From positions 199 through 64,198 of the forward strand of contig DBFVEH010000013.1 in NCBI GenBank assembly GCA_048526005.1: 64,000 nt of DNA, given 5' to 3'. A program made the position numbers and the translations under genes. Shown piece after piece: positions 1 through 57,269 of the stretch. The notes under the pieces are model-generated. The model was not told the DNA's origin, made no database searches, and saw nothing but the letters and a program-made list of their open reading frames with translations. This DNA comes from Eubacteriales bacterium (GTDB lineage Bacteria > Bacillota > Clostridia > Oscillospirales > CAG-272). Numbering within the stretch: position 1 is the stretch's first letter; each line of letters opens with the position of its first letter.

Positions 1-850
1 TTCTTGTACGGACAAGAAAAGAACACGTTTCTCCTTTATCAAAGGAGAAGAATATGTACTTTTCTCCGCAGGGAGAAAAGATACCAAAAGAGCTGTTGAG
101 GCTCCGCCTCAAACTCCCATGCTTCTGTTGGGAAGCATATACACACGGCTCCCAACAGACGGAACCGCGCACCTGTGTGCGCTCTCCGTCATTCGCCGTG
201 CGGGAAGTAACTGCCGCTGGGAAGCCCGAACCCGCAGGCGCAAGGCGCGCGCCGCGTGAGCGCCTTCCGGTGCGATATTGACGAACATGGCGGCGATTGA
301 CGGATCACGCGAGCCCCGCGAGCGTGGACGCCGTCTTTCATAGCCGCCATCGAACCGCTGCCGGCCGCACGAACAGTCAAGCCGGAGGCTTGCGGCTTCT
401 TTTCGTTCTTTTCTTTCCGCAAAGAAAAGAACATGTTTCTCTCCTTTCCAAAGGAGAGGATATGTACTTTTCTCCGTAAAGAGAAAAGTACCAAAAGATT
501 TACCGAGACTCCGTCTCGGACTCTCAACTTTCTGCTGGGAAGCACATACCCACGGCTCGAGAGGTGTTGCAGTGCTCGCGAAGCTCGCACAGGCCACCAC
601 TCGCCGTGCGGGAAGTATGTGCCGCTGGGAAGCCTGCGCACGCAGGCGCAAGGCGCGCGCCGCGTGAGCGCACTCCGGTATGATATCAATAAAAACGGCG
701 GCGGTTGACGGATCACGCGAGCCCCGCGAGCGTGGACGCCGTCTTTTATAGCCGCCACCGAACCGCTGCCAGCCGCATATACGGCCAAGCGGAACGTTCG
801 CGGTTTCTTTTCGTTCTTTTCCCCCTCGCACAAGAAAAGGACATGAAATG
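1..850. repeat. Tandem array (one unit cut by the window edge plus two units) of a ~408-410 bp hairpin-dense mosaic repeat; same family as 12337-13212
   Basis: Anchor GAAAAGAACAYGTTTCTC recurs at 16 and 424, with a degenerate copy at 834. Long blocks are nearly identical between units (e.g. GGCGGCGRTTGACGGATCACGCGAGCCCCGCGAGCGTGGACGCCGTCTTT at ~289-340 and ~697-748). ORFs on both strands run through the units (track ORFs of 75-254 aa), but the translations are Arg/Pro-rich nonsense. Confidence 0.9.
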
Positions 851-965
851 TTAATTTTCTTTGAAAAGCACATTTATAAGGGAATTATTTGCAAAATAAT
901 ATTGCAAATAATTCCGGTTAATGATATACTAATCTTATAAGAATCTTAAAATAAGAGGTAAAAAT

Positions 966-2261
966 ATGAACTACAATAAGAAAACCATCGAGGATATCGA
1001 TGTTGCCGGCAAAAAAGTTCTTGTCAGATGCGATTTCAACGTCCCGCTCAAGGACGGCGTTATCACAAGCGACAAACGGATTGTCGAGGCGCTTCCTACC
1101 ATCAAATATCTGCTCGATAAGGGCTGCAAGGTCATCCTTTGCTCCCATATGGGCAAGCCGCATAACGTGCTGACCGAGGGCTTCGGACTCAACAAAAAGG
1201 AGAAAAAGAAGCTCGAAGAGCTTCCGGTGGAAAAACAGGCCGAGGCCAAGGCGGATCTGCTGAAAAAAGCGCTCGGAGACAAAGAAAAATTCTCTTTGAA
1301 GCCGGTTGCGGAGAGACTCAACGAATACCTCGGCGGCAAAGTGACGTTCGCTTCCGATATCGTCGGAGACGACGCAAAAGCGAAGATTGCCGCGCTGAAA
1401 GGCGGCGACGCCGTTCTGATCGAGAACGTGCGCTTTGACGCGAGAGAAGAGAAGAACGACGCGGAATTTTCAAAAGAGCTTGCCTCTCTTGCCGAGATTT
1501 ATGTCAATGACGCATTTGGTTCCGCGCACCGCGCACATGCGTCCACAGCGGGCGTAGCCGCTTATCTGCCGGCTGTCTGCGGATATCTCATCCAGAAGGA
1601 AATCGGCGTGATGGGCGCGGCTTTGGAAAATCCGAAGCGTCCGTTTGTCGCGATTCTCGGCGGTGCGAAGGTTTCCGATAAGATCGGCGTCATCAATAAC
1701 CTGATGGAGAAGGTCGATACCCTCATCATCGGCGGCGGTATGGCGTATACGTTTTTCGCCGCGATGGGAAATTCCGTCGGGACATCTCTCTGTGAGACGG
1801 ATAAAATCGAGGATGCAAAGGAAATGATGGTAAGGGCACGCGCCAAGGGTGTCAATTTCCTCATTCCGGTCGATAACGTAGTCGGACGCGAATATGACGA
1901 AAACACCACGCATATGGTGATCTATTCCGACTCCATTCCGGACGGATGGATGGGACTTGACATCGGTCCTGTGACCCGTGAGCTGTTTTCTAAGACCATC
2001 GAGGGCGCCGGCACCGTCGTTTGGAACGGACCGATGGGCGTTTCCGAATGGGCGAATTTCGCGGCGGGCACCGAATCCGTTGCGAAGGCTGTCGCCGATT
2101 CCGGCGCGATTTCCATTATCGGCGGCGGAGATTCTGCGGCTGCGGTGGAGAAGCTCGGCTTTGCCGACAAAATGACGCACATTTCGACAGGCGGCGGCGC
2201 ATCGCTTGAATTCCTTGAGGGCAAGGAGCTTCCCGGAATCGCCTGCCTGCTCGACAAATGA
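966..2261 (+). CDS. pgk: Phosphoglycerate kinase
   Basis: N-terminus [12 protein letters not shown] and motifs [30 protein letters not shown]; RBS AAGAGG before the ATG; followed by tpiA. Confidence 0.95.
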
Positions 2262-3194: not shown

Positions 3195-5390
3195 TCAGTT
3201 CACGCCCATCGTGTCGATTTCTTCACCGTTGAGAAGCTTATGCGTATCGGAGAAAAGCTTGTCGATTGTCGCAGTACGGATATAGACTCCCTCTGTAGCA
3301 CGTTCGGTCTCTGTGCTGAGCAGCTCTTTTTCCCCGCCTGATGAGAGTCTGTAGGTGTTGGTCGTGATGGTCGGTACGACGTACATATAGGTCGGATTCA
3401 GCTGTCTTACCGTATTTCCGTTGATATCGGTATATTCGTCGTACAAATCGTAAATCTCGTATTCGTAGATTGTCTCGTCATATTCGCCGGAGGCGTTGTC
3501 CGGAAGAAACACCGTCACCTTGACGAGCCCGTTTCCGTCGTCGTCAAAGCCGTTCGGCTTTTCGACAGCGTCATTGGAGTCGACGGATTTTAAGAAGAAA
3601 CGCTTGGCATCCTCGTCATAAAATGCTCTGTCGTATGTGACCTGCCGCGTTGTCCCATCCGGAAGTGTCGTTGTGACAACAACGTTGTGGCAGAGGATAT
3701 TGCCTCCCTGATCGCGCAGCTGGGTTTCCTTGGTGCCGTTTGCACTGTATTTATAATATGAAATGCCGTGATCCTTCGGAGCGGTTTTGACGCGGACGAT
3801 CTTTGCCGGTGTGGAATCGACGCTGGTCATGTCCGTATCGATTTCCGCATAGAGCGCGAGCTTTCTTGTGATGAGAACGTAATAAAGATCGCGGAAGATC
3901 TCAAATTCTCCTTCATATTGGACGCCGCTGCCTACTTTGGTATAGGAGGTATCGTATACGAGCGGAATTTTTGTTCCCTCAGCTGTCACTCTATAAACAA
4001 TGGCTCCGTTATCGCCGGAGGTGGTGACCTCCACATGACGATTGCGCTCTTTTCCGGTGATGGTAAAGCGCAGATCGATGCCGTCGCGTTCCGAGATCAG
4101 CTCAAAATATTCCGTGCTGGTGAAATATTCAAAGTACATATAAGGATTGGTGAAGTTTGCAACGCTCCACTCAACGAAAGCAAAGTTTTCCGCCTGCACT
4201 TTTCCAATCACCTCATAGGAGGGCGAATAAACGTAATAATATTCAACGCCGTCTAAATCGGTAAATTTTTTGCTGAAATACAGAATAGAGGCTTTTTCCG
4301 AATAATTTTCAGATTCGGGGTCGGCACAGTTGAAGAGCAGAAGGGCATAGTTATGATCCGTTGCGGTTTCGATGCGTTCCTTATCGATGTCGAGCCCGAA
4401 TTTTTCATATACCTCGGGATCGTAGATGGATTCTCCGTATGCGACAATGCTGTCCGCCGTCACGGAGAGAAGCTGCATTAAAACATCGGAGCCGTAAACG
4501 TCTTCATTAATGAGATAGGATTTCGGGTACAGCATTTGGTAGGTCTGACTGGCAGCGGAAATCCCCTGCTCTTCGACAAGTCCGACCTGGATGATGACCT
4601 CGCGTTCTCCTGAGCTGCCGATTCGGGCAAGCGAGAAGTTGGACGTATTGTAAATGTCATTTCCGTAAGCGGGTGCCAGCGTCGTCGAAACAAGAAATGA
4701 GCTTTCAGCCAGCACGGTGCTGGAAAGTCCCGACTGAAGGGCATATACGATGTCATATTCGGAAACGGTGCCGTCCTCGTTTGTAACGGTGTTTTTCCGT
4801 CCTTCCAAAATCACGTAATAGCCTTTTGAGGTGGTCAGCGCGTTTCCGACATAGATCCGATAGGAGGAGCCGTCGACAAGCGTTACCTCGAACCATGAGG
4901 GATCGGAGGCCTCGTCGAGGCCGTAATGGCTGAGATCCTCCTCCGTCGCCCTTTCGTTGACTCTGTCCTGCCCTGCCGGAGAATTGGTCACAAGCACTCT
5001 TACATCTCCAAGTAAGGAGGAAACCTGCTCGTTTGAAAGAGCAATGTGCTCGTTTCCCTCGATCATGAACAGAATGGCGCCGTTGGATTCGTATGCGAGA
5101 AGCTTGTAATGCTCGTTTTCGTTTTTGATTTCGATGGATTGGATCTCCGAACGCTCGTATTGGCGAAGGATATAGATGGATTTGTTCTGATAGACCTCGC
5201 CGTCGAAAAGCGTGGGAACATAATTTTCCTCTGCGCGCAGCAGCGGGGCGATCGCCGCGAAATAGACGAGCACGCCTACGAGCGCACAGCAGCCGAGAAT
5301 AATCGAGATTTTGGCGGTTTTTTGGAGCGAAGTTTTTTCAACGTCGCTCTTTGTGAAAAGCGCCTTGATTTTTTGCCAGAATTTTTTCAT
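3195..5390 (-). CDS. Large membrane-anchored protein, last gene of the GldA/F/G-like ABC operon (DUF4340-like position)
   Basis: Start chosen at MKKFWQKIKALF, whose ATGA overlaps the upstream stop. One N-terminal TM helix, then a long extracytoplasmic region. The family call rests on operon position only. Confidence 0.45.
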   Translation of the reverse strand: MKKFWQKIKALFTKSDVEKTSLQKTAKISIILGCCALVGVLVYFAAIAPLLRAEENYVPTLFDGEVYQNKSIYILRQYERSEIQSIEIKNENEHYKLLAYESNGAILFMIEGNEHIALSNEQVSSLLGDVRVLVTNSPAGQDRVNERATEEDLSHYGLDEASDPSWFEVTLVDGSSYRIYVGNALTTSKGYYVILEGRKNTVTNEDGTVSEYDIVYALQSGLSSTVLAESSFLVSTTLAPAYGNDIYNTSNFSLARIGSSGEREVIIQVGLVEEQGISAASQTYQMLYPKSYLINEDVYGSDVLMQLLSVTADSIVAYGESIYDPEVYEKFGLDIDKERIETATDHNYALLLFNCADPESENYSEKASILYFSKKFTDLDGVEYYYVYSPSYEVIGKVQAENFAFVEWSVANFTNPYMYFEYFTSTEYFELISERDGIDLRFTITGKERNRHVEVTTSGDNGAIVYRVTAEGTKIPLVYDTSYTKVGSGVQYEGEFEIFRDLYYVLITRKLALYAEIDTDMTSVDSTPAKIVRVKTAPKDHGISYYKYSANGTKETQLRDQGGNILCHNVVVTTTLPDGTTRQVTYDRAFYDEDAKRFFLKSVDSNDAVEKPNGFDDDGNGLVKVTVFLPDNASGEYDETIYEYEIYDLYDEYTDINGNTVRQLNPTYMYVVPTITTNTYRLSSGGEKELLSTETERATEGVYIRTATIDKLFSDTHKLLNGEEIDTMGVN

Positions 5391-6994
5391 GAATGGCGTC
5401 TCCTTATATAAACATAGACTCCGAATCCTGCAACCAGTATCGGGATGACCACGACGCAGACAATCGTCCAAGCGCTTGCCGCAGAGGTCGATACCGTCAG
5501 TGCAGAGCTGTCGAATTCTTTGTAATCTATGCCTTCAAAGGTCGTAACGCTGTCCCACATAAGATTCAGCAGCGCATACATGATGCTTCTGTTGGCGCAG
5601 GAGCCTTCATATTCGCTGGAAAGAAAATCCGCCGAGCCAAGTGCGACGACATAGCTTACCTCGTTTGCGTTGAGCTCCCATACCATCCGCGACACGCCGA
5701 GCAGCGGGACCGAGCCGGTGGAGGTTTCTCCATCCGAGGTCCCCCGTGTACGTGCGGTGTCATAGGTTTGGAGCAAGGCAAAGGAAGATGCGGAGCCGTT
5801 CATGCCCTTCGGGATCTCGCTGTCGTCGAGGATGACGATTTCCTTCGGTGTTGAAAAAATGGTTGTCGGAAGATTGGAGGTGGTTCCGAACATTTTATCC
5901 AAAATCTGCGTGGCCATGGAGGGGGAGCTTTCGCTCGGCTTGTAGGTCTGCGTGTAGTCCACGATCACCTTGGCCGCGCCGGAGGAGGAAACGGAATGCT
6001 TGTCGTCGGTAACGGAGCCGCCGAAGCCGAGTCCCCATTCGGACAGGAGCCCTTCGAGCGCCGGCAGCTTCGGCGTGGAGGCATCCTCGACGACGATCAT
6101 GTTGCCGTAATTGGTGCCGAGGAAGGTCCTGATCTTTTTGACCTCGGAAACCTCCGTCGTCGAGAGCAGGTCGTATTTCGGACAGTTGATGATGACGATG
6201 CTGTCGTTGCTTGCTCCCTCTACGGGGAAATCCTCATTTGAGAGATTGATCTCCTGTACCTCGAAGCCGGCGAGCTCCAATACCTCCTGCCAGTCCGCAG
6301 CTTCTTCAAGCGTCGGTTCGCCATGCCCTTGCAGATAGTAGGCGACGGGCTTTTCCGTTTGCCCTGTGAGCTGCGCGACTGCGGAGAGCAGTCGCGCCTC
6401 CGCGTTATAGCCGATATAGCTGCCGCTCGAGGAGTCCGCCGTAAAGAAGGATTCGATCGCATATTTTTTCGCGGGGACGTTTTCGAGCGCGTTGTGATTT
6501 TCATCGCAGAGCTCAAGGACGACATCGGAGAGCGCCGGCGTATCGAGCGCCGTTCTCTTGTATTTTTCGGCAAGCTCGGGATGGACCGTCGTATTGTAGG
6601 CGACAAGCTCTATGTTGTCGAATTCCGCCACCAGCTCCTTCAACGTCCGGTATACCATGGCGGTCAGCGAGTTCATCCCTTTAAAATAGTCCTCCTCTGC
6701 CATCAGGACGATATTGAGGTATACGGGCTTTCCGTCCATCGTTTTAGAGAGCAGCTCCCCCATTTTTTCGGAAAAGGTGTCGGACAGCGAGTAGATGCCT
6801 GCTGCGGTCATGTCCGTATACCAGCCGTAAACGGAGGACAGCGAGGTCGCAATGATGTTCAAAACGATGATAAGCGCAACGAATATGACCGTGACGATGA
6901 CGGACAGGGAACCGTATTTCAGATTTCGCTTGTCGGACGGACGCTTCGTCTCGACTGCGTCCTTTCCGCTGTTTTTCTCTTTGTTGTTTGCCAT
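5387..6994 (-). CDS. GldG-like ABC transporter auxiliary component
   Basis: N-terminal and C-terminal TM helices flank a large extracytoplasmic domain. Sits directly downstream of the ABC-2 permease, as in GldA/F/G-type operons. Confidence 0.65.
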   Translation of the reverse strand: MANNKEKNSGKDAVETKRPSDKRNLKYGSLSVIVTVIFVALIIVLNIIATSLSSVYGWYTDMTAAGIYSLSDTFSEKMGELLSKTMDGKPVYLNIVLMAEEDYFKGMNSLTAMVYRTLKELVAEFDNIELVAYNTTVHPELAEKYKRTALDTPALSDVVLELCDENHNALENVPAKKYAIESFFTADSSSGSYIGYNAEARLLSAVAQLTGQTEKPVAYYLQGHGEPTLEEAADWQEVLELAGFEVQEINLSNEDFPVEGASNDSIVIINCPKYDLLSTTEVSEVKKIRTFLGTNYGNMIVVEDASTPKLPALEGLLSEWGLGFGGSVTDDKHSVSSSGAAKVIVDYTQTYKPSESSPSMATQILDKMFGTTSNLPTTIFSTPKEIVILDDSEIPKGMNGSASSFALLQTYDTARTRGTSDGETSTGSVPLLGVSRMVWELNANEVSYVVALGSADFLSSEYEGSCANRSIMYALLNLMWDSVTTFEGIDYKEFDSSALTVSTSAASAWTIVCVVVIPILVAGFGVYVYIRRRHS

Positions 6995-7009
6995 GTTTTT
7001 CTCCCCCTC

Positions 7010-7726
7010 TTACGATCTCGACCAGCGGCGCTTTTCAAAGACTCTTACCGTGAGGAAAAGGAATACGGCGGAAAGCGACACGAAATAGATCAGTGAATCA
7101 TAGCTGAAAATGCCGTTTGCAAAATACGCATACCGGCTTGTTATGGAAATACCGGAGAGGATATTCCGAATGAACTCGTTGTTGATATAGCTGTTGAGCG
7201 AGCTGATGAAAAGCAACAGCACGATCGCGCCGATGGTGCCGAACGCGGAGATGAACTGATTTTCCGTCAGGGAGGAGATGAAAATCCCGATGGAGATGAA
7301 CGCGCTGCCGACGAGGAATACGCCGAGGACACAGCCGACGTACATAGCGGTGTTCGGCTCCCCGTAAAGAGAGAGCGGAATATAATATACAATGGAGGAA
7401 AGGAGAAATGAACCGCCGAACATCGTGAGCGCGGCAAGGTATTTGCCGAACACGATTCCCGCGAGCGTGACGGGCGCCGTCATGATGAGCTGATCGGTCC
7501 TCATTTTTCTTTCCTCGCTGACGAGCTTCATGGTGATCAGCGGAATGATGATGACAAACAGGAACAGCAGAATGGAAAAATAGCTGGAAAAGCTGCTGTT
7601 TGAGCCTGCCTGGACGGTATACGTCATGAAAAGGAATGCGCTCACCGCGAAGAAGATCGCGCAGAACATATATCCCACCGGGGATGCGAAATAGGCGCGC
7701 ATTTCGCGCTTATAAATTGCAAGCAT
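7010..7726 (-). CDS. ABC-2 type transporter permease (GldF-like)
   Basis: N-terminus IYKREMRAYFASPVGY and about 6 predicted TM segments; lies between the ATPase and the GldG-like gene. Confidence 0.75.
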   Translation of the reverse strand: MLAIYKREMRAYFASPVGYMFCAIFFAVSAFLFMTYTVQAGSNSSFSSYFSILLFLFVIIIPLITMKLVSEERKMRTDQLIMTAPVTLAGIVFGKYLAALTMFGGSFLLSSIVYYIPLSLYGEPNTAMYVGCVLGVFLVGSAFISIGIFISSLTENQFISAFGTIGAIVLLLFISSLNSYINNEFIRNILSGISITSRYAYFANGIFSYDSLIYFVSLSAVFLFLTVRVFEKRRWSRS

Positions 7727-8829: not shown

Positions 8830-9702
8830 TCATTCGATCACGCGGACACGGCGCGGCAGGCATTTTACTGTCACTTCGGGATAATCGCCGCCGAATTCGC
8901 CGTCGAGCGTCCACGGCGCGCTGCCCTCAAAGCGGAAGGTGATTTCCTCCGCGGAGAATTTATAGACGAAATCGTTTTTCGTCTTTGGTGTGAGCAGTCC
9001 CGACAGCGCCTGCTGGAGCTGTCCCGGCGTGTCGGGATAGCGGATCATCATGACCTCGAGCCTGCCGTCGCGCAGCTCCTCCGCGGAATTGCCCTCAAAA
9101 AAGCGGATCCCTCCGACGGTTTTGGAGTTTGCGACCATGCCGTAAATGAAATCGTCGGTAATCTGCTGTCCCTCATAGAGAAAGGAAACACGGATCGGCG
9201 TCAGGGAGAAGAGCCGTTTTGCGGCTTCCGCAATGTAAGCGGTGCGGCCAAACGACGCCTTTGTGATCTGCGGCGTGAGATAAGCGACGTCCGTGAACGC
9301 GCCGAAGGCCGCCACATAGGAAAAGGGAAGCTCCCCGAGAAGTCCCACGTCATATTCGACCGGCGTGCCGGAAACGATTTTCTCGATTGCACCCTTGATT
9401 CCCTTCGGGATTTTATGGCTGGTCGCGAAATCGTTGACCGTCCCCGTCGGGATATATCCGAGCATGGGGCTTGTCCCCCCGAGATAAAGGCCGCGGATCG
9501 TTTCGTTGAGCGTACCGTCTCCGCCGCAGCAGACCACCGCGCCGTATTCTCCCGATTTTTCCTTTACGACGCGCGCGATATCTCCGGTCTGCTTTGAAAA
9601 ATACACCGTTACGAAATCGAAGCGCGTGAGAAGTCCTGCCGTGATGTCGTATACCCATCGCTTCGCCTCGCCGTCGCCCGAGTTCGGATTGATGATGAGC
9701 AA
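8830..9702 (-). CDS. Diacylglycerol kinase family lipid kinase (YegS/BmrU type)
   Basis: N-terminus MLIINPNSG and the GGDGTLNE motif. Confidence 0.85.
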   Translation of the reverse strand: MLIINPNSGDGEAKRWVYDITAGLLTRFDFVTVYFSKQTGDIARVVKEKSGEYGAVVCCGGDGTLNETIRGLYLGGTSPMLGYIPTGTVNDFATSHKIPKGIKGAIEKIVSGTPVEYDVGLLGELPFSYVAAFGAFTDVAYLTPQITKASFGRTAYIAEAAKRLFSLTPIRVSFLYEGQQITDDFIYGMVANSKTVGGIRFFEGNSAEELRDGRLEVMMIRYPDTPGQLQQALSGLLTPKTKNDFVYKFSAEEITFRFEGSAPWTLDGEFGGDYPEVTVKCLPRRVRVIE

Positions 9703-9903
9703 TGCGTTGTTTTCCGTTTCCGCGCACCTCTTTTCGTAGCATAATTACAGCGTTCCTACAAGATAATGTTAATTATAACCTGTTTTCCCTCAAAAATCAA
9801 GTCAATTGCCGTTCAAATTGCCTGAAACCGCGATATTTTTTTCCTCCGTTGACTTTGGCTGCCATATATTGTATAATATTGACCATAATAAAGGACGAAG
9901 GAA

Positions 9904-12306: not shown

Positions 12307-12307
12307 G

Positions 12308-12333
12308 AAAAAGGCGGATATTCCGCCTTTTTC
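12308..12333 (+). terminator. Intrinsic terminator of pepF
   Basis: AAAAAGGCGGA-TATT-CCGCCTTTTT hairpin with a T-run immediately after the stop codon. Confidence 0.75.
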
Positions 12334-12336
12334 CTT

Positions 12337-13212
12337 TATAAAAAATATGTGCTTTTCTCACTGAGGAGAAAAGCACCAAAAGACTCACCGAGACTCCCGT
12401 CTCGGACTCTCATGCTTCTGCTGAGAAGCGTATACACACGGCTCGAAAGGTGTTGCAGTGCTCGCAAAGCTCGCACAGGCCACCAGTATAAACTGGAAAG
12501 CGATCTATACCCTTTTAAAGTACAATGCTAAAATCAATCGTATCACAATGCAATGCTTCGCATTGCAGGGCAACCTCACCGTGCGGGAAACAACTGCCGC
12601 TGGAAAGTCCGCGACCGCAGGCGCAAACTGCCGGATTGCACTCGACGCCCGTTCGGCGTGTTCCGCCGTGGCTTGCGTACCCCTGCGGTACGCAAACACG
12701 TGTCGGGAGCCGACGGAATACATTTTTGGCTCGCACCAACGGTCAAGCCGGAGGTTTGCGATTTCTTTTCGTTCTTTTCTTGTTCGTACAAGAAAAGAAC
12801 ACGTTTCTCCTTTGCCAAGGAGAAGATATGTGCTTTTCTCACTGAGGAGAAAAGCACCAAAAGACTCACCGAGACGCTGTCTCGGACTCTCATGCTTCTG
12901 CTGGGGAGCGTATACCCACGGCTCGAAGATGTTGCAGTGCTCGCGGAGCTCGCACAGGCCACCACTCACCGTGCGGAAAGCAACGGCGGCTTGGGAAGCC
13001 CGCGCCCGCAGGCGCAAGGCGCGCGCCGTGTGAGCGCCTCCCGGGGCGATGTTCACAAACACGGCGGCGGTTGACGGATCACGCGAGCTTCGCGAGCGTG
13101 GATGCCGTCTTTCATAGCCGCCACCGAACCGCTGCCGGCCGCACGAACGGTCAAGCCGGAGGCTTGCAGTTTCTTTTCGTTCTTTTCTTGTCCGACGGGG
13201 AAAAGAACGCAC
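12337..13212. repeat. Second tandem array (two units) of the ~408-bp hairpin-dense mosaic repeat; fills the convergent pepF/serS intergenic region
   Basis: Anchors at 12792 and 13200 (408-bp period). Unit 2B is collinear with units at 1-850. Unit 2A starts inside the unit and carries a ~89-nt AT-rich insertion (12486-12574) and a substituted 3' module (~12625-12745). Confidence 0.9.
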
Positions 13213-13215
13213 TTT

Positions 13216-14505
13216 TTATTTTTTCGGAATCAGCTTTTCCTTCCCGCTCATATACGGACGGAGCGCGGCGGGCACGTTCACCGAACCGTCGGCGTTCAGA
13301 TTGTTTTCGAGGAAGGCGATGAGCATTCTCGGCGGGGCGACGACCGTGTTGTTGAGCGTATGCGCGAGGTATTTTTTGCCGTCCGCGCCGTTTACGCGGA
13401 TTTTTAAGCGCCTTGCCTGTGCGTCGCCGAGATTCGAGCAGCTTCCCACCTCAAAATATTTTTTCTGACGCGGCGACCATGCCTCGACGTCGACCGATTT
13501 GACCTTGAGATCGGCGAGATCGCCGGAGCAGCATTCGAGCGTGCGCACCGGAATATCTAAGGAACGGAACAGGTCGACCGTGTTCTGCCAAAGCTTATCG
13601 AACCACATCTTGCTGTCCTCGGGCCGGCAGACGACGATCATTTCCTGCTTTTCAAACTGATGGATGCGGTAGACGCCGCGCTCCTCGATGCCGTGCGCGC
13701 CTTTTTCTTTGCGGAAGCACGGGGAATAGCTGGTCAGCGTATAGGGCAGATTTTTTTCATCGAGGATTTGATCGATGAACTTGCCGATCATGGAATGCTC
13801 GCTCGTGCCGATGAGATAGAGATCCTCCCCTTCGATTTTATACATCATGGCGTCCATCTCGGCAAAGCTCATGACGCCGGTCACGACGTTTGAGCGAATC
13901 ATGAACGGCGGCACGCAGTAGGTAAAGCCGCGGTCGATCATGAAATCGCGCGCATAGCTGATGACGGCGGAATGGAGCCTTGCAATATCGCCCATGAGGT
14001 AGTAAAAACCGTTTCCGGCGACGCGGCGCGCGGAATCGAGGTCAAGCCCGTCGAAACGCTCCATGATATCGCTGTGATAGGGAATTTCAAAATCCGGAAC
14101 GACCGGATCGCCGAACCGCTGCACCTCGACGTTTTCGCTGTCGTCCTTTCCGATCGGGACGGAGGGATCGATGATATTCGGAATGGTCATCATGATCTTT
14201 GTGATCTTTTCGTCCAGCTCCGCTTCCTTGGCTTCCAGCGCGGCGAGCGCCTCGGAATTTTCTGTCACCTGCTTTTTGGCTTCCTCGGCCTCGGCCTTTT
14301 TGCCCTGCGCCATGTATGCGCCGATCAGCTTGGAGACCTTATTGCGGTTTGCGCGCAGAGCATCCGCCTCGCCTTTTGCCTTGCGGTTTTCCTCGTCGAG
14401 AGCAATGACCTCGTCGACAAGCGGTAGCTTGGCGTCCTGAAATTTGTTTCGGATGTTCTGCTTTACGATTTCGGGATTTTCTCTGAGAAATTTTAAATCC
14501 AGCAT
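13216..14505 (-). CDS. serS: Serine--tRNA ligase
   Basis: N-terminus MLDLKFLRENPE with a coiled-coil arm, then class II core motifs (e.g. YSPCFRKEKG). Start trimmed to the ATG at 14505 with RBS GGAGGAG. Confidence 0.95.
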   Translation of the reverse strand: MLDLKFLRENPEIVKQNIRNKFQDAKLPLVDEVIALDEENRKAKGEADALRANRNKVSKLIGAYMAQGKKAEAEEAKKQVTENSEALAALEAKEAELDEKITKIMMTIPNIIDPSVPIGKDDSENVEVQRFGDPVVPDFEIPYHSDIMERFDGLDLDSARRVAGNGFYYLMGDIARLHSAVISYARDFMIDRGFTYCVPPFMIRSNVVTGVMSFAEMDAMMYKIEGEDLYLIGTSEHSMIGKFIDQILDEKNLPYTLTSYSPCFRKEKGAHGIEERGVYRIHQFEKQEMIVVCRPEDSKMWFDKLWQNTVDLFRSLDIPVRTLECCSGDLADLKVKSVDVEAWSPRQKKYFEVGSCSNLGDAQARRLKIRVNGADGKKYLAHTLNNTVVAPPRMLIAFLENNLNADGSVNVPAALRPYMSGKEKLIPKK

Positions 14506-31222: not shown

Positions 31223-31552
31223 TTATCTTCTGGAGTTGGACGCAGCGACGCAGATCATTCCGGGGCAACGGCTGCAGCACCCGCATCCGCAGCTACATCT
31301 GTCGGACGTACCGCCGACGGTGTCATCATTGCTGCCGCATCCGCAGCCGCGTCTGTCGGAGACGCCGCCGACGCTGTCGTCGTCACGGTTTCTGCCGCAT
31401 CCGCAGCCGCGTCTGTCGGAGACGCCGCCGACGCTGTCGTCGTCACGGTTTCTGCCGCATCCGCATCCGCGTCTGTCGGAGACGCCGCCGACGCTGTCGT
31501 CATCACGGTTCCTGCCGCAGCAGAATCTGCTCATACAGTTTCCTAAACACAT
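31223..31552 (-). CDS. Cys-rich tandem-repeat small protein (109 aa), no recognised family
   Basis: Canonical RBS AAGGAGGTG, 6 nt, then ATG. Sequence MCLGNCMSRFCCG, then three near-identical 20-aa repeats (RNRDDDSVGGVSDRRGCGCG), then a CSCGCGCCSRC tail. About 19 Cys. All six frames are open here, so the strand choice rests on the RBS and the flanking terminators. Confidence 0.55.
   Translation of the reverse strand: MCLGNCMSRFCCGRNRDDDSVGGVSDRRGCGCGRNRDDDSVGGVSDRRGCGCGRNRDDDSVGGVSDRRGCGCGSNDDTVGGTSDRCSCGCGCCSRCPGMICVAASNSRR
31271..31520. repeat. 60-bp tandem repeat (three near-identical copies at 31331-31510 plus a degenerate copy upstream)
   Basis: Copies 31391-31450 and 31451-31510 differ at a single base. 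Copy 31331-31390 differs from 31391-31450 only at its first base. Confidence 0.95.
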
Positions 31553-35747: not shown

Positions 35748-36210
35748 GTAATTGATTCCTTTCCGTAGTGCTCTTTTTTGGTGCATTTGGCTTTGAAGCG
35801 GCGTTTTCAACGATCCGCTTCGTGATCCGAACATATTCCACAGCGTCCTTTTCACCAAGATCTTTCAGCATTTCGCTGGCGGATTCGAGGACGTGTGTTT
35901 TGTGGGCTTCGATATGGAAGGAACCTGCGTCGGTGAGCTTCACGCAGATTTTTCGTTTGTCCTTATCGTCCGGCACGCGGGTAATAAAGCCCTTTGATGC
36001 AAGTGTGGCCAAGAGCTTTGCCGTTCGGGCGGTGCTGATGTTCAGCTCGTCGCTGATCTCTCCCGGCGAGGCGGCGCCGTGATAGGATAAAAAGACCAGC
36101 GCAGGCATTTCTCCCCGCACGAAACGGTCGGCATTTTTTTGCATCGGAGCTTTGGAGAACTTCGGCATGTTTTCCAAAAGCTCCCGTGCCAGCTCTTGAT
36201 AGTCCGTCAA
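35731..36210 (-). CDS. MarR family transcriptional regulator
   Basis: Winged-helix region LNISTARTAKLLATLASKGFITR..DKDKR. TTG start has RBS AAGGAGGG at 6 nt. Overlaps the ABC gene start. Confidence 0.85.
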   Translation of the reverse strand: MTDYQELARELLENMPKFSKAPMQKNADRFVRGEMPALVFLSYHGAASPGEISDELNISTARTAKLLATLASKGFITRVPDDKDKRKICVKLTDAGSFHIEAHKTHVLESASEMLKDLGEKDAVEYVRITKRIVENAASKPNAPKKSTTERNQLHDKNF

Positions 36211-36247
36211 AATGATCCCTCCTTTGCAGACTTTATGTGCCAATTAA

Positions 36248-36260
36248 CTAACACTGTTAG
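36248..36260. promoter_or_regulatory. Candidate MarR operator palindrome CTAACA-C-TGTTAG
   Basis: Perfect 6+6 palindrome 38 nt upstream of the marR start. The same hexamers occur at the second marR promoter (44558-44573). Confidence 0.35.
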
Positions 36261-36562
36261 CAATTTTATAGGACGGACGCCGTCTTGTCAATAGACTTCA
36301 CAAAAAGTTTTATTTTCTATTACAGTTTATACAAGATTCATGTCTGTCCTTTGTAAGATATATTTCTTTTTGTTCTGACGGGGAAGATGGTTTTATAAAA
36401 AATTTTTTATAAGTTTTTAAAAACAGTGAACCGAATGACAAAAAAATACACTATATAAATATCATGACGACGTCATTCAACTAAAACTCTATCGATTTCA
36501 ACGACATGCTGATTGCCTTTTATCTTGGAAAAATGCTAAAATTGAATTAGGATCCATTCCGA

Positions 36563-37336
36563 ATGAAAAAATCGGCAGTAAGGAATATCGGGATCCAATT
36601 TGAGAAGGACTTGGCCGCGGTTTTGTCGGCAGATGGGAGAAAAACAATGGATTACAGAAAAAACATACGCTATTTTAAGAGCTCTGACGCACATTTTTAT
36701 GTAGGAATTCCGATCGTCATCATAGGGATCATTCTTTTTGTCATCGGTCAGTTCTTTTGGATTTATTTTATCCCATATCAAAGCATGACGGCACTGCTGG
36801 CGGTCTTGGCCGGCGCTGCGGTCGCATGGATCCCGCGCTGGAGACGCTCGGATGAAAAGGAGCTTGACGATTATATCGCCTCCAAAAAGGAGGATCATGT
36901 CAAGAAAGCCGAGGAAAGGCTCGGCCTTTCCTCCTCTCTTATGCCGGGCAGGGAACCGATCGTCATCGGCGGCTTCGATTTCGATTCCGGCGACGTTTTG
37001 TATCGGCGCGGAAAGGATGACAGAAAATACCGTTCGTCTCTTTATACGTCGTCGGTGCTTTTTCTGACAAAGAACGGGATCTGTGCCGTGCAGAAAAGCT
37101 TCTCGCTCACGGAGGATTTGGAGCATGAAACCGTGAAGGAAATCCCGTATTGCGATATCGACGACGCTAAGATTATTTGTGAGGAAAAAACGGTCGGTGC
37201 CGATAAAATAAAATATTTTTGTTTTGTGATTGCGGCAAATGGAGCTGAGCTTCTGCGCGTTCCGGCAGCGCAGGATGCCGTGCTGGAAGGAATCTGCGAG
37301 GATATCCGTACGGCCGCCGTGAAGGCGAAAGCTTGA
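36563..37336 (+). CDS. Hypothetical membrane protein (two TM helices plus soluble C-terminal domain)
   Basis: ORF with a terminator after it. The alternative start at ATG 36647 has the better RBS (GGGAGA). No family recognised. Confidence 0.5.
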   Translation: MKKSAVRNIGIQFEKDLAAVLSADGRKTMDYRKNIRYFKSSDAHFYVGIPIVIIGIILFVIGQFFWIYFIPYQSMTALLAVLAGAAVAWIPRWRRSDEKELDDYIASKKEDHVKKAEERLGLSSSLMPGREPIVIGGFDFDSGDVLYRRGKDDRKYRSSLYTSSVLFLTKNGICAVQKSFSLTEDLEHETVKEIPYCDIDDAKIICEEKTVGADKIKYFCFVIAANGAELLRVPAAQDAVLEGICEDIRTAAVKAKA

Positions 37337-37356
37337 TTTTTCTTCTTTTGTTTGAA

Positions 37357-37397
37357 TAAAAAACCCCGGCAGGCGCAAAGCCTGCCGGGATTTTTTA
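37357..37397. terminator. Bidirectional intrinsic terminator
   Basis: Stem CCCGGCAGG/CCTGCCGGG flanked by AAAAAA and TTTTTT. Confidence 0.8.
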
Positions 37398-37399
37398 TC

Positions 37400-37618
37400 T
37401 TATTTCACATCGCCCGTGATCTCTTCCGTATCGCGTTCGCGGAAAAGCAGTGAAATACACCAAATTCCCGCAAGAGCCACGATCGTATACACGATTCTGC
37501 TGACAAGAGCATCCTGTCCGCCGAAGATCCAAGCGACGAAGTCGAAACGGAAAAGACCGATGCTTCCCCAGTTGAGCGCGCCGATGATTGTGAGTATGAG
37601 CGCAATTCTGTCGAGCAT
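37400..37618 (-). CDS. DUF378 domain-containing membrane protein
   Basis: ALILTIIGALNWGSIGLF motif; 72 aa, two TM helices. Confidence 0.8.
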   Translation of the reverse strand: MLDRIALILTIIGALNWGSIGLFRFDFVAWIFGGQDALVSRIVYTIVALAGIWCISLLFRERDTEEITGDVK

Positions 37619-38016
37619 AATATTAACCTCCGATCATAATTTCAAAACGGCCGTCAAAACGGTGCGTTATTTTTTCATTATTTGAGTAAATATTTTTTAT
37701 CTTTCGACAGTATGTAGTTTCTCCGAATCCGCCCGTTTTATGCACGGGAATGAAAAAGCATTTGTAAATTGCGCCGGTTTTTACCAAAAAAGCCGTATTT
37801 TTCACTTGTTTTTTGCCCGATTTATCATATCATCACAGCATGAAATAAAAAGATGGTATTGTTATGACGAGCAAAGAACGACTTGACGGATATTTAAAGG
37901 GAAAGGCAGTGGACAGAAGACCGGATCTGGTGGTTGTGAATGTTGCTTTTTGACAGGCCGTGGCAGGATCGGCGGATAAATATTGTAGGCTTTTTGGAAT
38001 GGATATCTAAATAGGC

Positions 38017-38230
38017 GAAAGTCCGGCGGCGCGGGGCGGCGTATGCCGCCCCTTCCCGCGCGCAGACGGCTTTATGATGAGCAGTGACTGCCAAATCAAG
38101 TGCCGGACTTTGGAATATATGCGGAACTTCCGTCTGCGCGCGGTTTCCGGCCAAGCCGATAAAGTTTGCGTTTTGTTTTGTGGACGATTTTTCGGCTTGG
38201 CCGCGCCGCCGGACGCCATCCTATTTTTTT
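38017..38230 (+). other. GC-rich nested-stem element (~200 nt): candidate structured ncRNA or MITE-like palindromic element
   Basis: Perfect 14-bp outer pairing 38021-38034/38201-38214 encloses an 8-bp hairpin (38033-38052), a perfect 13-bp stem (38057-38069/38130-38142) and an 11-bp stem (38149-38159/38192-38202). T7 run at 38223-38229. No credible ORF. Confidence 0.35.
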
Positions 38231-38325
38231 GTTGCGTTTTCCCGCGGATTGTGTTAAAATGATTCTATCGTCATATTTGCGTTTGACGCTGATAATCAAT
38301 CGTTCATAAGGTAAGGATCATAAGT

Positions 38326-39000
38326 ATGCGGGTACGAAAACGGAAAAACGGAGAAGCGCGCCGTGCGGCATGCGGCAGCTTGCTTCTCCCTTTTGATAAA
38401 AATGAGCCGGCGAGGATGGAGCCGTCGGCGCTTTTTCCGGATAAAAAGCGGTTTCATCTCGAGATCGGATGCGGCAAGGGCGCTTTTATCACGACGCTTG
38501 CGGGGAAGAATCCGGAGGTCGGCTTTCTTGCGGTGGAGAAGGTGAGCGACGTCATCCTGCTTGCCGCGGAAAAGGCGAGGGGCGCGGCGCTTGAAAACGT
38601 CAGATTTCTGTGCTGTGACGCGGAATATCTCCCCCGTGTGCTTCCGGCGCATTTCGCGGAGCGGATTTATCTGAATTTCTGCGATCCGTGGCCGAAGGCG
38701 CGTCATGCGAAGCGCAGGCTTACGTATCGGGATTCCTTGACGCGAATCGCGGGCCTGCTTGCGCCGGACGGGGTTGTCGCGTTCAAGACGGACAACCGTG
38801 AGCTTTTTGATTTTTCGATTGCGGAATTTGAGGCGGCGGGCTTTTCGCTTCGTTATATCACCTATGATTTGCACGCCAGCGAATGGGCGTGTGACAATAT
38901 TATGACCGAATATGAGCGCAATTTCTCGGAAAAAGGATTCAAAATCAACCGACTGGAGGCCTTTTTGCCGCAATCTGCGGAATTTTCGGAAAATTTTTGA
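38326..39000 (+). CDS. trmB: tRNA (guanine-N7)-methyltransferase
   Basis: HLEIGCGKGAF SAM-binding motif, NFCDPWPK motif, ~224 aa. Confidence 0.9.
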   Translation: MRVRKRKNGEARRAACGSLLLPFDKNEPARMEPSALFPDKKRFHLEIGCGKGAFITTLAGKNPEVGFLAVEKVSDVILLAAEKARGAALENVRFLCCDAEYLPRVLPAHFAERIYLNFCDPWPKARHAKRRLTYRDSLTRIAGLLAPDGVVAFKTDNRELFDFSIAEFEAAGFSLRYITYDLHASEWACDNIMTEYERNFSEKGFKINRLEAFLPQSAEFSENF

Positions 39001-39134
39001 GTGAAAAGAAAAAAAGTCTTGATTTTTTTGAAAAACTATGCTATAATAATCAGCACTGTGTTATGATGCCTCATAAATGGGGAGTATTCTCCGTTTGTTT
39101 GAGATAATCCAAAAAATCGAGGGAGGTGCAGGAT

Positions 39135-39320
39135 ATGGCAAAATGTATGTACTGCGGAAAGGGCGTTACGTTCGGCAACAACGTTTCCCACTCCAACCGC
39201 AAAACCAGCAGAACCTGGAAGCCCAACATCAGAAAGGTCAGTGCCGTTGTGGACGGAACCCATAAGACCGTCACGGTCTGCTCACGTTGTCTGCGTGCAG
39301 GCAAGGTAGAAAGAGCCTGA
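39135..39320 (+). CDS. rpmB: 50S ribosomal protein L28
   Basis: MAKCMYCGKG..GNNVSHSNRKTSRTWKPN; RBS GGGAGG. Confidence 0.95.
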   Translation: MAKCMYCGKGVTFGNNVSHSNRKTSRTWKPNIRKVSAVVDGTHKTVTVCSRCLRAGKVERA

Positions 39321-39344
39321 TTTCAGAGTTTGAGGTCGCATGTC

Positions 39345-39380
39345 GAGTCCTTTCCGAAAGGAAAGGACTTTTGCATTTTT
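39345..39380 (+). terminator. Intrinsic terminator of rpmB
   Basis: Stem GTCCTTTCC/GGAAAGGAC followed by a T-rich tail. Confidence 0.7.
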
Positions 39381-39421
39381 GGATATTGGCTTGTTTGAAT
39401 GAATAGGAGGGAGCGCTTGGC

Positions 39422-40126
39422 ATGGGCCGGTATTATTTCATCAATGAAAATCTGCCGGCTTCGATGGTTTCGGCGCTGTCCGAATACGGCTGCTGTGTGA
39501 GACTGCCGGCTTTCCCGAAGCTTTCCGAGCCTGTCCTGCGGCATCCCGATATGCTGATTGCGGAGGTGGACGGCCGCCTGATCGTTCATCGGCATTATAT
39601 AAAAGGAAGAAAAGTCTTGGATACGCTCGGTATCCCGTATCTGTTATCGGAGGAGGATCCGGGAAATGAATACCCGCGGGATATCACGCTGAACTGCTTT
39701 TCAGCGGGCGGCTTTTTCTTTGCCAATCAGAAGTATGTGTCGCGGACGGCTTTGCATACAGCGAAAAAGACCGGACTTACGCCCGTCCATGTGAAGCAGG
39801 GCTATGCGAAATGCGCCTGTGTTATCGCACATGACGCGGTCGCAACGGCGGATTCGGGGATTTACGCGGCGGCTCTGCGGTACGGACTTCCCGCCTTGAG
39901 GCTGAATCCCGGCGGAATCGGGATCGAGCGGTACGATACCGGCTTTATCGGCGGCGCGTGCGGTCTTGTTGACCGGGACACGCTCGGCTTTTTTGGAAAT
40001 GTGGAGGAGTACGGCCGGTATGATGCGCTCCGCGCTTTTTTTGAACCGCTGGGCGTTCGGCTTTTGAGCCTTGGAGGGGAGGCGCTGTTCGATTACGGCG
40101 GCATGGTCACGGTGGAGATCCCGTAA
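39422..40126 (+). CDS. Conserved-looking hypothetical protein
   Basis: RBS AGGAGGG. Motifs HPDM, QGYAKC and GFIGGACG are faintly reminiscent of the pentein/amidinotransferase fold; this is not a confident assignment. Confidence 0.45.
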   Translation: MGRYYFINENLPASMVSALSEYGCCVRLPAFPKLSEPVLRHPDMLIAEVDGRLIVHRHYIKGRKVLDTLGIPYLLSEEDPGNEYPRDITLNCFSAGGFFFANQKYVSRTALHTAKKTGLTPVHVKQGYAKCACVIAHDAVATADSGIYAAALRYGLPALRLNPGGIGIERYDTGFIGGACGLVDRDTLGFFGNVEEYGRYDALRAFFEPLGVRLLSLGGEALFDYGGMVTVEIP

Positions 40127-40226
40127 GGAAAGGGTATACTGCTTGCCGGCGCTCAAAAAGCAATCCATAGGGGAAAGCCCCCGAAAAAGAATTTCTTTTT
40201 CAGGGGCTTATGATTTTGGGAACGGA

Positions 40227-41660
40227 TCACAGCTCCGTCACATCGTTTTCCCATTCGTCGGAGATCGCTTTGTAGGCTCTCGTATATTCTTTGAATATGC
40301 TGCGGATTTCAAGCAGATGCTCCATGGTGTCCGCCTCAAAGATCAGGACGAGCTCCGGCAGGTTGGACGATGCGCGGACAAGTCCCCAGCCGTGCTCGAA
40401 CTGAACCCGCGCGCCGTTGATATCGCATACGCGGCCGGGATAGGCGGCTTTCAGCTTTTCGACGAGCTCCTCCACGATGCCGTATTTCACAGTGTCGTCG
40501 CAGTGCGCCTTGATCTCGGGCGATACGACGTAATGCGGGAACGAATCTATGATCTCGGAGACGGTTTCCTCTTTGTGAGAAAGAAATTCCACAAGCTTGG
40601 CCGCGACGAATACGGCGTCGTCGAAGCCGTACCAGTCGTCGCCGGAGATGAATATATGTCCGCTGCGTTCGCCGGCAAGCTCCGCATCCAGCTCATGGAG
40701 CTTGGATTTGATATAGGAATGCCCGGTTTTCCACATGACGGGATGTCCGCCGTTCTGCTCGATGACGTCGATAAGCGCCTTGGAGCATTTGACGTCGAAT
40801 ACGACCGTGGCGCCGGGCTTCTTTTCGAGAAGCTGCTTGGCGATGAGCGCGAGGACCATATCGCTCCAAATGTTCTGGCCTTTTTCGTCGATGACGCCGA
40901 TGCGGTCGCCGTCGCCGTCGAAGGAAAGCCCGATATCCGCGTGGATATACGGATGGAGCACCATGTCGTGCAGGCGCTTTCTGCCGGCGACATCCGAGGG
41001 ATTCGGGAAATAATGCGGATAGGAGGTATCGGGGTCGCAGTTGAGCTGGAACGTCATGCAGCCCAGTCTCTGGAATACCTCGTAGATAAAGACGCCCGCG
41101 CCGCCGTTGGCGGCGTCGAGCACGACGCGCAGCTTTTTCGGCCCCATGTGGATTCTCGAAACGATGTCGTCAATGTAGGCGTCGCGCACGTCGACCTCCG
41201 TATAGACGCCCGTATGGGCGCTTTCCGTCGGCTGGTCGAGCAGGGAAAAGACCTCCTTGATATCGTCCGGCTCCAAGGTCTTGGAATAGCCGTTGGCGAG
41301 CTTAAAGCCGGACCAGCCGTCCGGATTGTGGCTTGCCGTGATCATGACCGCGCCCTCGCATTTCAGGTGATACTGCGCGAAATAGGCGAGCGGAGAGAGG
41401 GCGAGCCCGATGTAAAATACGTCGATGCCTTCCTCCAAAAGCGCGTCGACGGCGGATTTTGCAAACGCCGGAGAGCAGGAGCGGTTGTCGTAGCCGACGA
41501 CCGCGCGCATGATCTTTCTGCGGCGCAGATATTTGGAATATGCTTTTACGATCCTGTATACGTTTTCGGGGCAAAGCTCCTCGTCGCATACTCTTCCGCG
41601 GATGTCGTATTCGCGGAACATGCTGCGGAAGGCCTCCGGATATTTGGTATCTGTTATCAT
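40227..41660 (-). CDS. Phosphomannomutase/phosphoglucomutase (alpha-D-phosphohexomutase family)
   Basis: Active-site loop TASHNPDGWSGFK, metal loop FDGDGDR, GERSGH sugar-binding loop. Confidence 0.9.
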   Translation of the reverse strand: MITDTKYPEAFRSMFREYDIRGRVCDEELCPENVYRIVKAYSKYLRRRKIMRAVVGYDNRSCSPAFAKSAVDALLEEGIDVFYIGLALSPLAYFAQYHLKCEGAVMITASHNPDGWSGFKLANGYSKTLEPDDIKEVFSLLDQPTESAHTGVYTEVDVRDAYIDDIVSRIHMGPKKLRVVLDAANGGAGVFIYEVFQRLGCMTFQLNCDPDTSYPHYFPNPSDVAGRKRLHDMVLHPYIHADIGLSFDGDGDRIGVIDEKGQNIWSDMVLALIAKQLLEKKPGATVVFDVKCSKALIDVIEQNGGHPVMWKTGHSYIKSKLHELDAELAGERSGHIFISGDDWYGFDDAVFVAAKLVEFLSHKEETVSEIIDSFPHYVVSPEIKAHCDDTVKYGIVEELVEKLKAAYPGRVCDINGARVQFEHGWGLVRASSNLPELVLIFEADTMEHLLEIRSIFKEYTRAYKAISDEWENDVTEL

Positions 41661-56521: not shown

Positions 56522-56539
56522 AAGGTCGTAAATCAGAGG

Positions 56540-56655
56540 ATTTCCCGCAACCGACGGAGATGTGGAGCACCACAGGGGAACGGGGGATGATACCGAAGCC
56601 GACCGTCTGGGCAATCCTATCGAGAAGGATAGGACTGCCCTTTTTATGTTTTTGG
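56540..56655 (+). promoter_or_regulatory. ZTP (pfl-motif) riboswitch with terminator expression platform
   Basis: CCGACGGAG..TGTGG-AGCA-CCACAGGGGAACGGGGG parallels the pfl consensus CUGGCG..GGUGG-loop-CCACCGGGGAGCG. Downstream CCGTCTGGGCA parallels CCGCCUGGGCA, and GACGG/CCGTC can form the pseudoknot. A long hairpin at 56608-56640 is followed by TTTTTATGTTTTT. Located between the promoter and purE. Confidence 0.6.
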
Positions 56656-57179: not shown

Positions 57180-57269
57180 AATAAAATAGGGTATATCTTC
57201 TGCCGCGGACGGCGGAGAAAAGGTTTGAAAATAAAATCAGACAGGAAAATCGAAAGGAAGCTTATCGTT

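Follow-up and report, generated by a model that had tools for sequence, protein, structure and literature searches.

A ~410-bp hairpin-dense repeat stacked in tandem in an uncultured human-gut Clostridia lineage: a possible mosaic repeat of the BOX/BIME kind

A 64,000-nucleotide stretch of DNA from an Eubacteriales bacterium (assembly GCA_048526005.1, contig DBFVEH010000013.1, positions 199 to 64,198 of the forward strand; hereafter the window) opens with a tandem repeat upstream of pgk. An initial annotation, made from the letters alone, had described this repeat as tandem, hairpin-dense, unclassified and non-coding, with neither a transposase nor a repeat/spacer organisation, and this description held in the analysis reported here, in which scans against Rfam gave no match. 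The repeat is best described as a lineage-restricted, non-autonomous, non-coding family of interspersed mosaic repeats, comparable to BOX and BIME elements, with a unit of ~410 bp that is repeated in tandem; we give this reading about an even chance of being correct. The host is one uncultured human-gut Clostridia lineage. Of the three explanations offered initially, namely a large structured RNA gene family, a satellite-like DNA and a new non-autonomous element, the last one, understood as a mobile or recombining element, is the best supported.

On the plus strand, the unit consists of the hairpins h1 and h2, a GC-rich multi-hairpin body of ~330 nt and a junction hairpin, hJ. In h1 (TTTCTCCTTT-nnn-AAAGGAGAA) a perfect Shine-Dalgarno-like sequence is locked in the hairpin and is mostly followed by an ATG, which is replaced by ACG, GTG or TTG in some units. 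As this ATG opens frames of either 5 or ~75 codons, depending on the unit, an LDR-like type I toxin-antitoxin system was rejected. Hairpin h2 (GTGCTTTTCTC-n6-GAGAAAAGCAC) is a 28-nt palindrome (..CTTTTCTC..GAGAAAAG..); a hammerhead-like motif in its loop (CUGANGA..GAAA) was dismissed, since it occurs in one allele only. The body contains h3, h4, a replaceable module h5, more stems, a near-invariant core of ~100 nt (GGCGGCGRTTGACGGATCACGCG..GCGAGCGTGGAYGCCGTCTTTYATAGCCGCC..) and a short GC hairpin with a T-rich tract on its 3' side. The 28-30-nt hJ (GTTCTTTTCTTGT-n4-ACAAGAAAAGAAC) is formed with the next unit and is a variant of the same palindrome as h2. One arm of hJ lies at the 3' end of a unit and the other at the 5' end of its successor; the unit is therefore bounded by inverted repeats (14-24 versus 405-415, 11/11, inverted repeat I11), and the palindromes h2 and hJ bracket the body; the earlier statement that terminal inverted repeats are lacking was therefore incorrect. 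Besides these type-1 units, type-2 units were found, in which the 5' modules and the 3' end are as in type 1 and the middle is different and carries an AT-rich insert. The motif CTTTTCT..AGAAAAG occurs six times in the window, where 0.01 occurrences are expected, and all six lie inside the repeat.

Two arrays were identified in the window. The first (1-845) comprises the tail of one earlier unit and two complete units of ~408 nt that are ~80% alike. In agreement with the period of 408/410 bp noticed initially, direct repeats with this spacing spanned positions 1-843 in the repeat finder, including D1 (190-413 versus 598-821, 86% identity) and the three-fold D4 (9-25, 417-433 and 827-843). Units A and B had a mean column identity of 86% in a pairwise alignment over their whole length and were 79% identical over 402 nt by blastn. 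TRF, run on the window, missed this array, presumably because it holds only about two diverged copies. Positions 1-24 (plus strand) are the 3' part of hJ (..TTCTTGT-acgg-ACAAGAAAAGAAC, inverted repeat I3) of the unit preceding the window start. Since hJ only follows a unit body in every other array, we infer from this sequence that array 1 runs on past the window start. Unit A (type 1, 25-432, plus strand; nhmmer 14-422, 461 bits) comprises h1 at 29-49 (TTCTCCTTT..AAAGGAGAA, Shine-Dalgarno-like, then ATG at 54-56), h2 at 56-84, h3 at 96-112, h4 at 120-137, the GC-rich body with the near-invariant core at ~287-362, the 3' hairpin at 378-392 followed by the T-rich tract, and hJ at 405-432. Unit B (type 1, 433-845, plus strand; nhmmer 422-841, 486 bits) comprises h1 at 437-460, h2 at 464-491, h3 at 503-519, the core at ~695-770, a 3' hairpin at 789-801, which the letters permit to be extended to CCAAGCG-gaa-CGTTCGCGG, hJ at 813-842 and three terminal nt. 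Its boundary was taken from L053, a repeat-free relative with 94% identical Pgk: homology with L053 begins at 845/846, and array 1 accordingly has its 3' boundary at 843-845 and not at 850, as had been proposed.

The second locus mentioned in the initial annotation is present as array 2 (12349-13208), which is flanked by an M3 peptidase gene and serS. Directly 5' of it, the intrinsic terminator of the M3-peptidase (pepF-like) gene (GAAAAAGGCGGAtattCCGCCTTTTTCC, 12307-12334, plus strand) occupies the place of h1. Unit C (type 2, 12349-12800, plus strand) was delimited by blastn, nhmmer and the hairpin listing; its shared 5' modules, with h2 at 12349-12376 and h3 at 12388-12405, reach to ~12486, the alternative middle with the AT-rich insert extends from 12487 to 12731, and the shared 3' end consists of a hairpin at 12744-12758 and hJ at 12771-12800. 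Unit D (type 1, 12801-13211, plus strand; nhmmer 12790-13207, 476 bits) contains h1 at 12805-12824, h2 at 12830-12857, h3 at 12869-12885, the core at ~13060-13135, the 3' hairpin at 13152-13166 and hJ at 13179-13208. The array ends only 5-8 nt from the stop codon of serS (13216-13218, minus strand).

The stem-loops named in the initial annotation could be recovered, 464-491 as inverted repeat I13 (I21 being another) and both 96-112 and 503-519 by the hairpin listing, which also contained 437-460 and 405-432. The minimum free energy fold of unit B contained 9 hairpin loops and had an energy of -171.6 kcal/mol, compared with -140.1 ± 6.6 kcal/mol in dinucleotide shuffles (z = -4.8), and the complementary strand folded alike (z = -4.6). 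Covariation was analyzed in 33 distinct full units with a median pairwise identity of 80%. In the consensus structure 98.4% of the cells were paired, versus 35-51% in slid controls. Compensatory changes were found at 13 pairs, and double-change cells numbered 79 versus 28.6 ± 3.7 in shuffles, none of 500 shuffles being as high. A preference for the plus strand, based on G-U versus A-C pairs, was withdrawn, as the reverse-complement alignment had equal energy and G-U pairs of its own. The predicted folds favour neither strand for a functional single-stranded form.

The initial annotation saw no plausible open reading frame (ORF) in the repeat. A 254-aa ORF (109-873, minus strand) does run through units B and A, and 408 equals 3 x 136; nevertheless, the judgement stands in so far as this ORF is spurious and the repeat non-coding. 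Between units the frames are shifted by indels of 1-2 nt and stops are scattered in every frame. The ORF product is Arg-rich and has no domain in Pfam. The 52 'homologues' in the protein database were predicted on further copies of the repeat, and HMMER, run in full against 1.84 billion protein-cluster representatives, returned only 36 look-alikes.

No known family could be assigned to the repeat either. In E-value scans of both arrays against Rfam 15, a check already proposed with the initial annotation, no family was matched and the best score was 27.9 bits against a threshold of 100, while the gathering scan of the window gave no match in the repeat and only a ZTP riboswitch elsewhere. No blastn match to the repeat was obtained in PLSDB plasmids and INPHARED phages, and viral contigs scanned with the core pattern gave nothing. 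The sole 'viral' match to the 3'-end pattern, L016 (IMG/VR UViG_3300045988_165406, 6678-7183), carries a type-2 unit and is the same sequence, 99.9-100% identical, as the chromosomal locus L009 of a metagenome-assembled genome (MAG); L016 either belongs to a prophage or is a chromosomal contig that was misclassified. A CRISPR array was rejected because the ~380 nt between the junction hairpins are themselves conserved. Group IIC introns insert after intrinsic terminators, and the repeat shares with them the place directly after terminator stem-loops and the head-to-tail copies; however, a group IIC intron was rejected as well, since the unit is too short (~410 nt) and lacks a domain V, a reverse transcriptase and a match to Intron_gpII.

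In an exact-pattern scan of the GTDB species representatives, the 3'-end pattern was located at 13 loci on 4 contigs of one MAG, CAKSDZ01 ('uncultured Eubacteriales'). Two further pattern matches, L004 and L014, lacked unit homology and were discarded as chance. A core-pattern scan of metagenomes returned 26 stretches, with at least two of the records labelled human gut. Many of the metagenome copies lie at contig ends, which indicates that the repeat breaks assemblies. Units are thus dispersed in a related MAG and in metagenomes, and not confined to the two loci of the window. All arrays are head to tail and contain 1-4 units. When the 8-9-kb loci fetched from relatives with 94, 87 and 85% identity in Pgk and 96, 92 and 89% in SerS were searched with a profile of 33 sequences in nhmmer, no unit was detected. 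From these two sampled loci of relatives, the family appears to be confined to one species-level clade.

Within this clade the units are mosaics. The variation is not clock-like, with 2-4 discrete alleles per hairpin module. Almost all pairwise combinations of alleles were seen, even of h2 with h3, which are ~12 nt apart, and the 33 units represented 21 five-module haplotypes. Neighbouring units were 78.7% alike, compared with 79.7% for all pairs; as neighbours are no more alike than units of different loci, recent duplication in place does not account for the arrays. Orthologous loci had arrays with constant boundaries and replaced content (L010 versus L030; the window versus L011).

Strains with identical Pgk and a 99.87% identical flank carried 1, ~2.6, 3 or 4 units upstream of pgk, and at least 3 units were counted in a contig ending inside the array. 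The gene before the pgk array also varies, being groEL, EF-G or another gene, and identity of the strains with the window sets in at 697, within the invariant core. A second rearrangement break point coincides with the array after rplT (9003-9787): L043 and L044 have two units and a gene for a SpoU methylase at this place, and L045 has a single unit together with a block in inverted orientation (PFK, DUF6062 and others). From the differences in unit number and gene order at the pgk and rplT arrays it follows that arrays coincide with recombination break points. Comparison of conspecific strains, which differ in unit number and flanking genes, shows the arrays as portable homology. Between L036 (~2478) and L013 (2591-3073), a deletion in one strain, at a GCCG microhomology, fuses the middle of a unit to the P-loop gene next to it, at codon ~17, an example of how the repeat takes part in gene loss. 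This pair had been considered as a clean empty site and was rejected because the difference is a deletion into the neighbouring gene. The 758-aa gene of L008 was likewise rejected as a counterpart of the DUF4340 gene of the window, and the serS relatives were not syntenic on the array side.

In about 9 of the ~16 arrays with an inspected 5' boundary, the first unit directly adjoins the T-tract of an intrinsic terminator (groEL, EF-G, M3 peptidase and others). Several arrays are placed between convergent genes, and about four abut a divergent gene start. The first module of an array is h1 or h2; where it is h2, a foreign hairpin occupies the place of h1. Arrays end after hJ plus 3 nt or after one extra h1. 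A miniature inverted-repeat transposable element defined by terminal inverted repeats was rejected on these grounds, as arrays open at h1/h2 and close with a complete hJ, to which an h1 may be added, and never have their boundaries at the repeat ends; site-specific integration at hJ or h1 does not fit the boundaries either. The sequence before arrays starting at h2 is A/T-rich (..AWAT) and that before arrays starting at h1 consists of T-tracts, with no single motif. A direct repeat of the flank was not observed at array ends, where the repeat-free comparison covered the 3' boundary alone. The hairpin/promoter listing of the window arrays contained no sigma-70-type promoter inside units, and terminator-like hairpins were present on both strands of the units. 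Relative to GC skew, 6 of 12 MAG loci had positive and 6 negative orientation, i.e., there was no replication-strand bias. Two arrays lie 3 kb apart in opposite orientation, one array is antisense to both neighbours, and a weak tendency of the orientation to follow the upstream gene was non-significant. In ~430 kb of partly redundant locus sequence, window included, h2/hJ-like palindromes were found in arrays only, and the gene tables returned listed no transposase.

The initial annotation could name no repeat or RNA class that the repeat fits; its architecture, however, parallels that of the modular interspersed repeats pneumococcal BOX, enterobacterial BIME and neisserial NIME, with which it shares palindromic modules, a mosaic composition, an extragenic position near terminators and a spread limited to a species. 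For pneumococcal BOX elements (boxA-boxB(n)-boxC; considered together with RUP and SPRITE), extensive secondary structure has been described, the restriction to a species has been read as parasitic, and large elements create ORFs on both strands (Croucher et al., 2011, PMC3049150). The repeat has in common with BOX that it is non-coding, modular and extragenic, forms stable hairpins and is present in many copies per genome in one species and its closest relatives; tandem-repeatable internal modules, spurious ORFs on both strands, the lack of an own transposase and a slow turnover are further shared features. Structured non-coding modules, many extragenic copies and the restriction to a species group, by which a BOX-like element can be recognized, were all found here. 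In contrast, BOX modules have 45-59 nt and the element is usually <300 nt, whereas here whole units of ~410 nt are in tandem, and neither alternative cores nor the free reassortment of hairpin alleles have been described for BOX. The likeness drawn here is one of architecture; the organism and the GC content make sequence homology unlikely.

A second parallel is provided by the enterobacterial REP/BIME clusters and by REPINs with their RAYT transposase (PMC3116915, PMC3733652). Shared features are extragenic palindromes of 20-40 nt, often just after stop codons or terminators, and arrays that vary by strain. Moreover, the palindromes h2 and hJ, of 28-30 nt, are separated in turn by a short linker (h1) and a long one (the body), as in a BIME. 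REP palindromes carry a GTAG or CGTC tag at one end (PMC3733652), whereas h2 and hJ start with (AT)GTGC.., (AT)GTCG.., CGTTC.. or GATGC.. and have no such tag when inspected by eye, without a motif search. Two other differences are that the long 'linker' here is a conserved structured body of ~330 nt and that the host belongs to the Bacillota and not to the Proteobacteria. In the neisserial intergenic mosaic elements (NIMEs), dRS3 palindromes flank variable, poorly structured units of 50-150 nt, and dRS3 is the target of phage and IS110-type integration. The alternation of a conserved palindrome with interchangeable units, the strain-variable mosaic and the role as sites of recombination and rearrangement are common to NIMEs and the repeat, but no integration partner of the dRS3 kind is known for the latter. 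Taken together, the mosaic-repeat profile would be already known and the unusually large, tandemly stacked unit would be new, an assessment that may equally well prove right or wrong.

If the family is a mosaic repeat, it would have no enzyme of its own and would persist in transcriptional dead zones. Recombination or template switching, with the invariant core and the hairpin feet as its sites, would add units to arrays and swap them between loci, possibly with the aid of an enzyme in trans. The stems might be kept by selection on a single-stranded form, either a read-through RNA, in which they would act as terminator or 3'-untranslated region structure, or single-stranded DNA (ssDNA). Quasipalindrome template switching is a route by which palindrome arms correct themselves, and the upkeep of the stems could alternatively result from arms correcting each other in this way. 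We infer that the family is selfish or commensal DNA and does not serve a host function.

Several observations weigh against a mosaic repeat of this kind. No mobilising enzyme and no target-site duplication were found among the loci examined, and mobility itself is thus a candidate property. No filled/empty pair with both boundaries was found among the compared loci. Near-identical units were not present across loci: only 1.3% of the pairs exceeded 90% identity and the best match of the window units was ~88%, so that there is no sign of a recent transposition or burst. A near-invariant core of ~100 nt with conserved unpaired stretches, together with ~9 kept hairpins, exceeds the usual constraint on cis-acting ends, the unit is ~3-10 times larger than those of BOX, BIME and REP, and ordinary homologous recombination would hardly reassort modules separated by only ~12 nt.

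A rival reading, which we regard as unlikely, is that each unit encodes a new large structured non-coding RNA or one of its domains; the arrays would then be multi-copy RNA genes and the core protein-binding or catalytic. The very stable fold, the compensatory changes in several helices and the near-invariant core with conserved unpaired stretches between variable flanking helices are in line with such an RNA, as are the terminator-like hairpin and T-rich tract at every unit 3' end, which show covariation (helix 14), and a possible extended -10 element (TGCTAAAAT) in type-2 units, recognized by sequence alone. However, units have no sigma-70-type promoter, both strands fold and covary equally well, and arrays are often located between two terminators and in either orientation to their neighbours. 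Two unrelated cores with common ends are the reverse of the pattern of an RNA family. Furthermore, the number of units changes from 1 to 4 depending on the strain, the repeat is absent at the two sampled loci of relatives, its spread is narrow and it has no Rfam match. The RNA gene family named in the initial annotation therefore retains some plausibility, but without a promoter, a defined strand or a broad distribution. In its more specific form, a new class of structured RNAs of ~400 nt would be encoded in multi-copy arrays and the ~100-nt core would bind a trans-encoded protein (e.g., a nuclease or recombinase, in the manner of omega-RNA scaffolds) or be catalytic, a proposal that is rather improbable. 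We are similarly doubtful that, in such an RNA, the hairpin alleles would have arisen from hairpin-guided template switching, a mode not described for bacterial repeats.

It is also rather improbable that the repeat is a non-autonomous ssDNA transposon of the IS200/IS605 (PATE) or REP/RAYT kind, with h2 and hJ as the end hairpins for a Y1 transposase encoded elsewhere. In this case tandem arrays would form because the element's own end mimics the target (a hairpin and a T/A-rich stretch), and the body might encode a guide-RNA-like scaffold. PATEs and omega-RNA scaffolds derived from IS200/IS605 are non-coding, without terminal duplication, and have subterminal hairpins and a structured interior. 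The repeat corresponds to them in being non-coding, in the related palindromes just inside both ends, in the lack of a visible terminal duplication and in its strongly structured interior; insertion beside hairpins and terminators, the head-to-tail orientation and arrays of diverged units, as expected from serial insertion, also fit an ssDNA transposon. On the other hand, with 6 of the 12 MAG loci each way there is no orientation bias with respect to GC skew, no conserved 4-5-nt target is visible 5' of arrays, and neither stray h2/hJ-like palindromes nor an annotated transposase, including a cognate tnpA/tnpB, was seen in the ~430 kb of partly redundant locus sequence. Near-identical, and thus recent, copies, a variable guide-like segment and a match to HEARO or another Rfam family are lacking as well.

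A local tandem duplication or satellite restricted to the region, an option of the initial annotation that the two adjacent copies and the regular period would favour, is very improbable and was rejected, as at least 13 loci occur in one MAG and many more in metagenomes, and neighbours are as diverged as units of different loci. That the repeat is protein-coding, with a period of 136 codons on the minus strand (ORF 109-873), is just as improbable: the unit length of 3 x 136, long open minus-strand frames in 7/16 units and the 52 'homologues' speak for it, but 1-nt indels, stops in every frame, the Arg-rich junk composition without a Pfam domain, the identity of every 'homologue' as another repeat copy and substitutions that are compensatory for stems speak against it.

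Some further features were noted near the repeat and elsewhere in the window. Just upstream of pgk, a 17-nt near-perfect palindrome (GGAATTATTTGCAAAAT/ATATTGCAAATAATTCC, 881-915) covers promoter-like sites and is largely conserved in the repeat-free L053; it looks like a putative operator for a repressor of a glycolytic operon. The Pgk of the window (966-2261, 431 aa) contains a Lys/Glu-rich insert at residues ~68-105. A typical bacterial Pgk has ~395 aa and such an insert is not expected. The close relatives listed have 424-441 aa, mostly 431-432, which is consistent with a shared insert. A ZMP/ZTP riboswitch (56537-56619, plus strand; 57.9 bits, above the gathering score) is located upstream of a purine-biosynthesis cluster that starts with a purC-like gene at 57225. 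At 31281-31519, a GC-rich 60-nt tandem repeat is present in ~4 copies with 90-97% identity, and several overlapping ORFs are open on both of its strands. The region ~35860-41510 has a low GC content (0.44-0.45), ORF gaps of 677, 917, 448, 420 and 515 nt, odd-looking ORFs and no tRNA, and may be degraded or foreign. Outside the window, L049 encodes a 605-aa ORF (3205-5022) that matches Cas9_REC significantly (E = 3.6e-17) and Cas9 RuvC weakly, i.e., a truncated Cas9-like gene. It lies ~1 kb from a unit, on the opposite strand and with a SpoVT-like gene in between, and is probably unrelated to the repeat.

If the reading as a mosaic repeat is true, a gut commensal lineage would carry tens of copies of an unusually large, tandem and highly structured mosaic repeat. 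Short-read assemblies are broken by it, with many of the fetched contigs ending inside a unit, and it seeds spurious ORFs in protein databases, which makes it an annotation hazard. Conspecific strains differ in gene order and copy number where the repeat lies, and it could be used as a strain-typing marker. Finally, the kept hairpins, the invariant core and the reassortment of modules over ~12 nt are not explained by textbook recombination, and such features could expose a new structured RNA or a template-switching mechanism.

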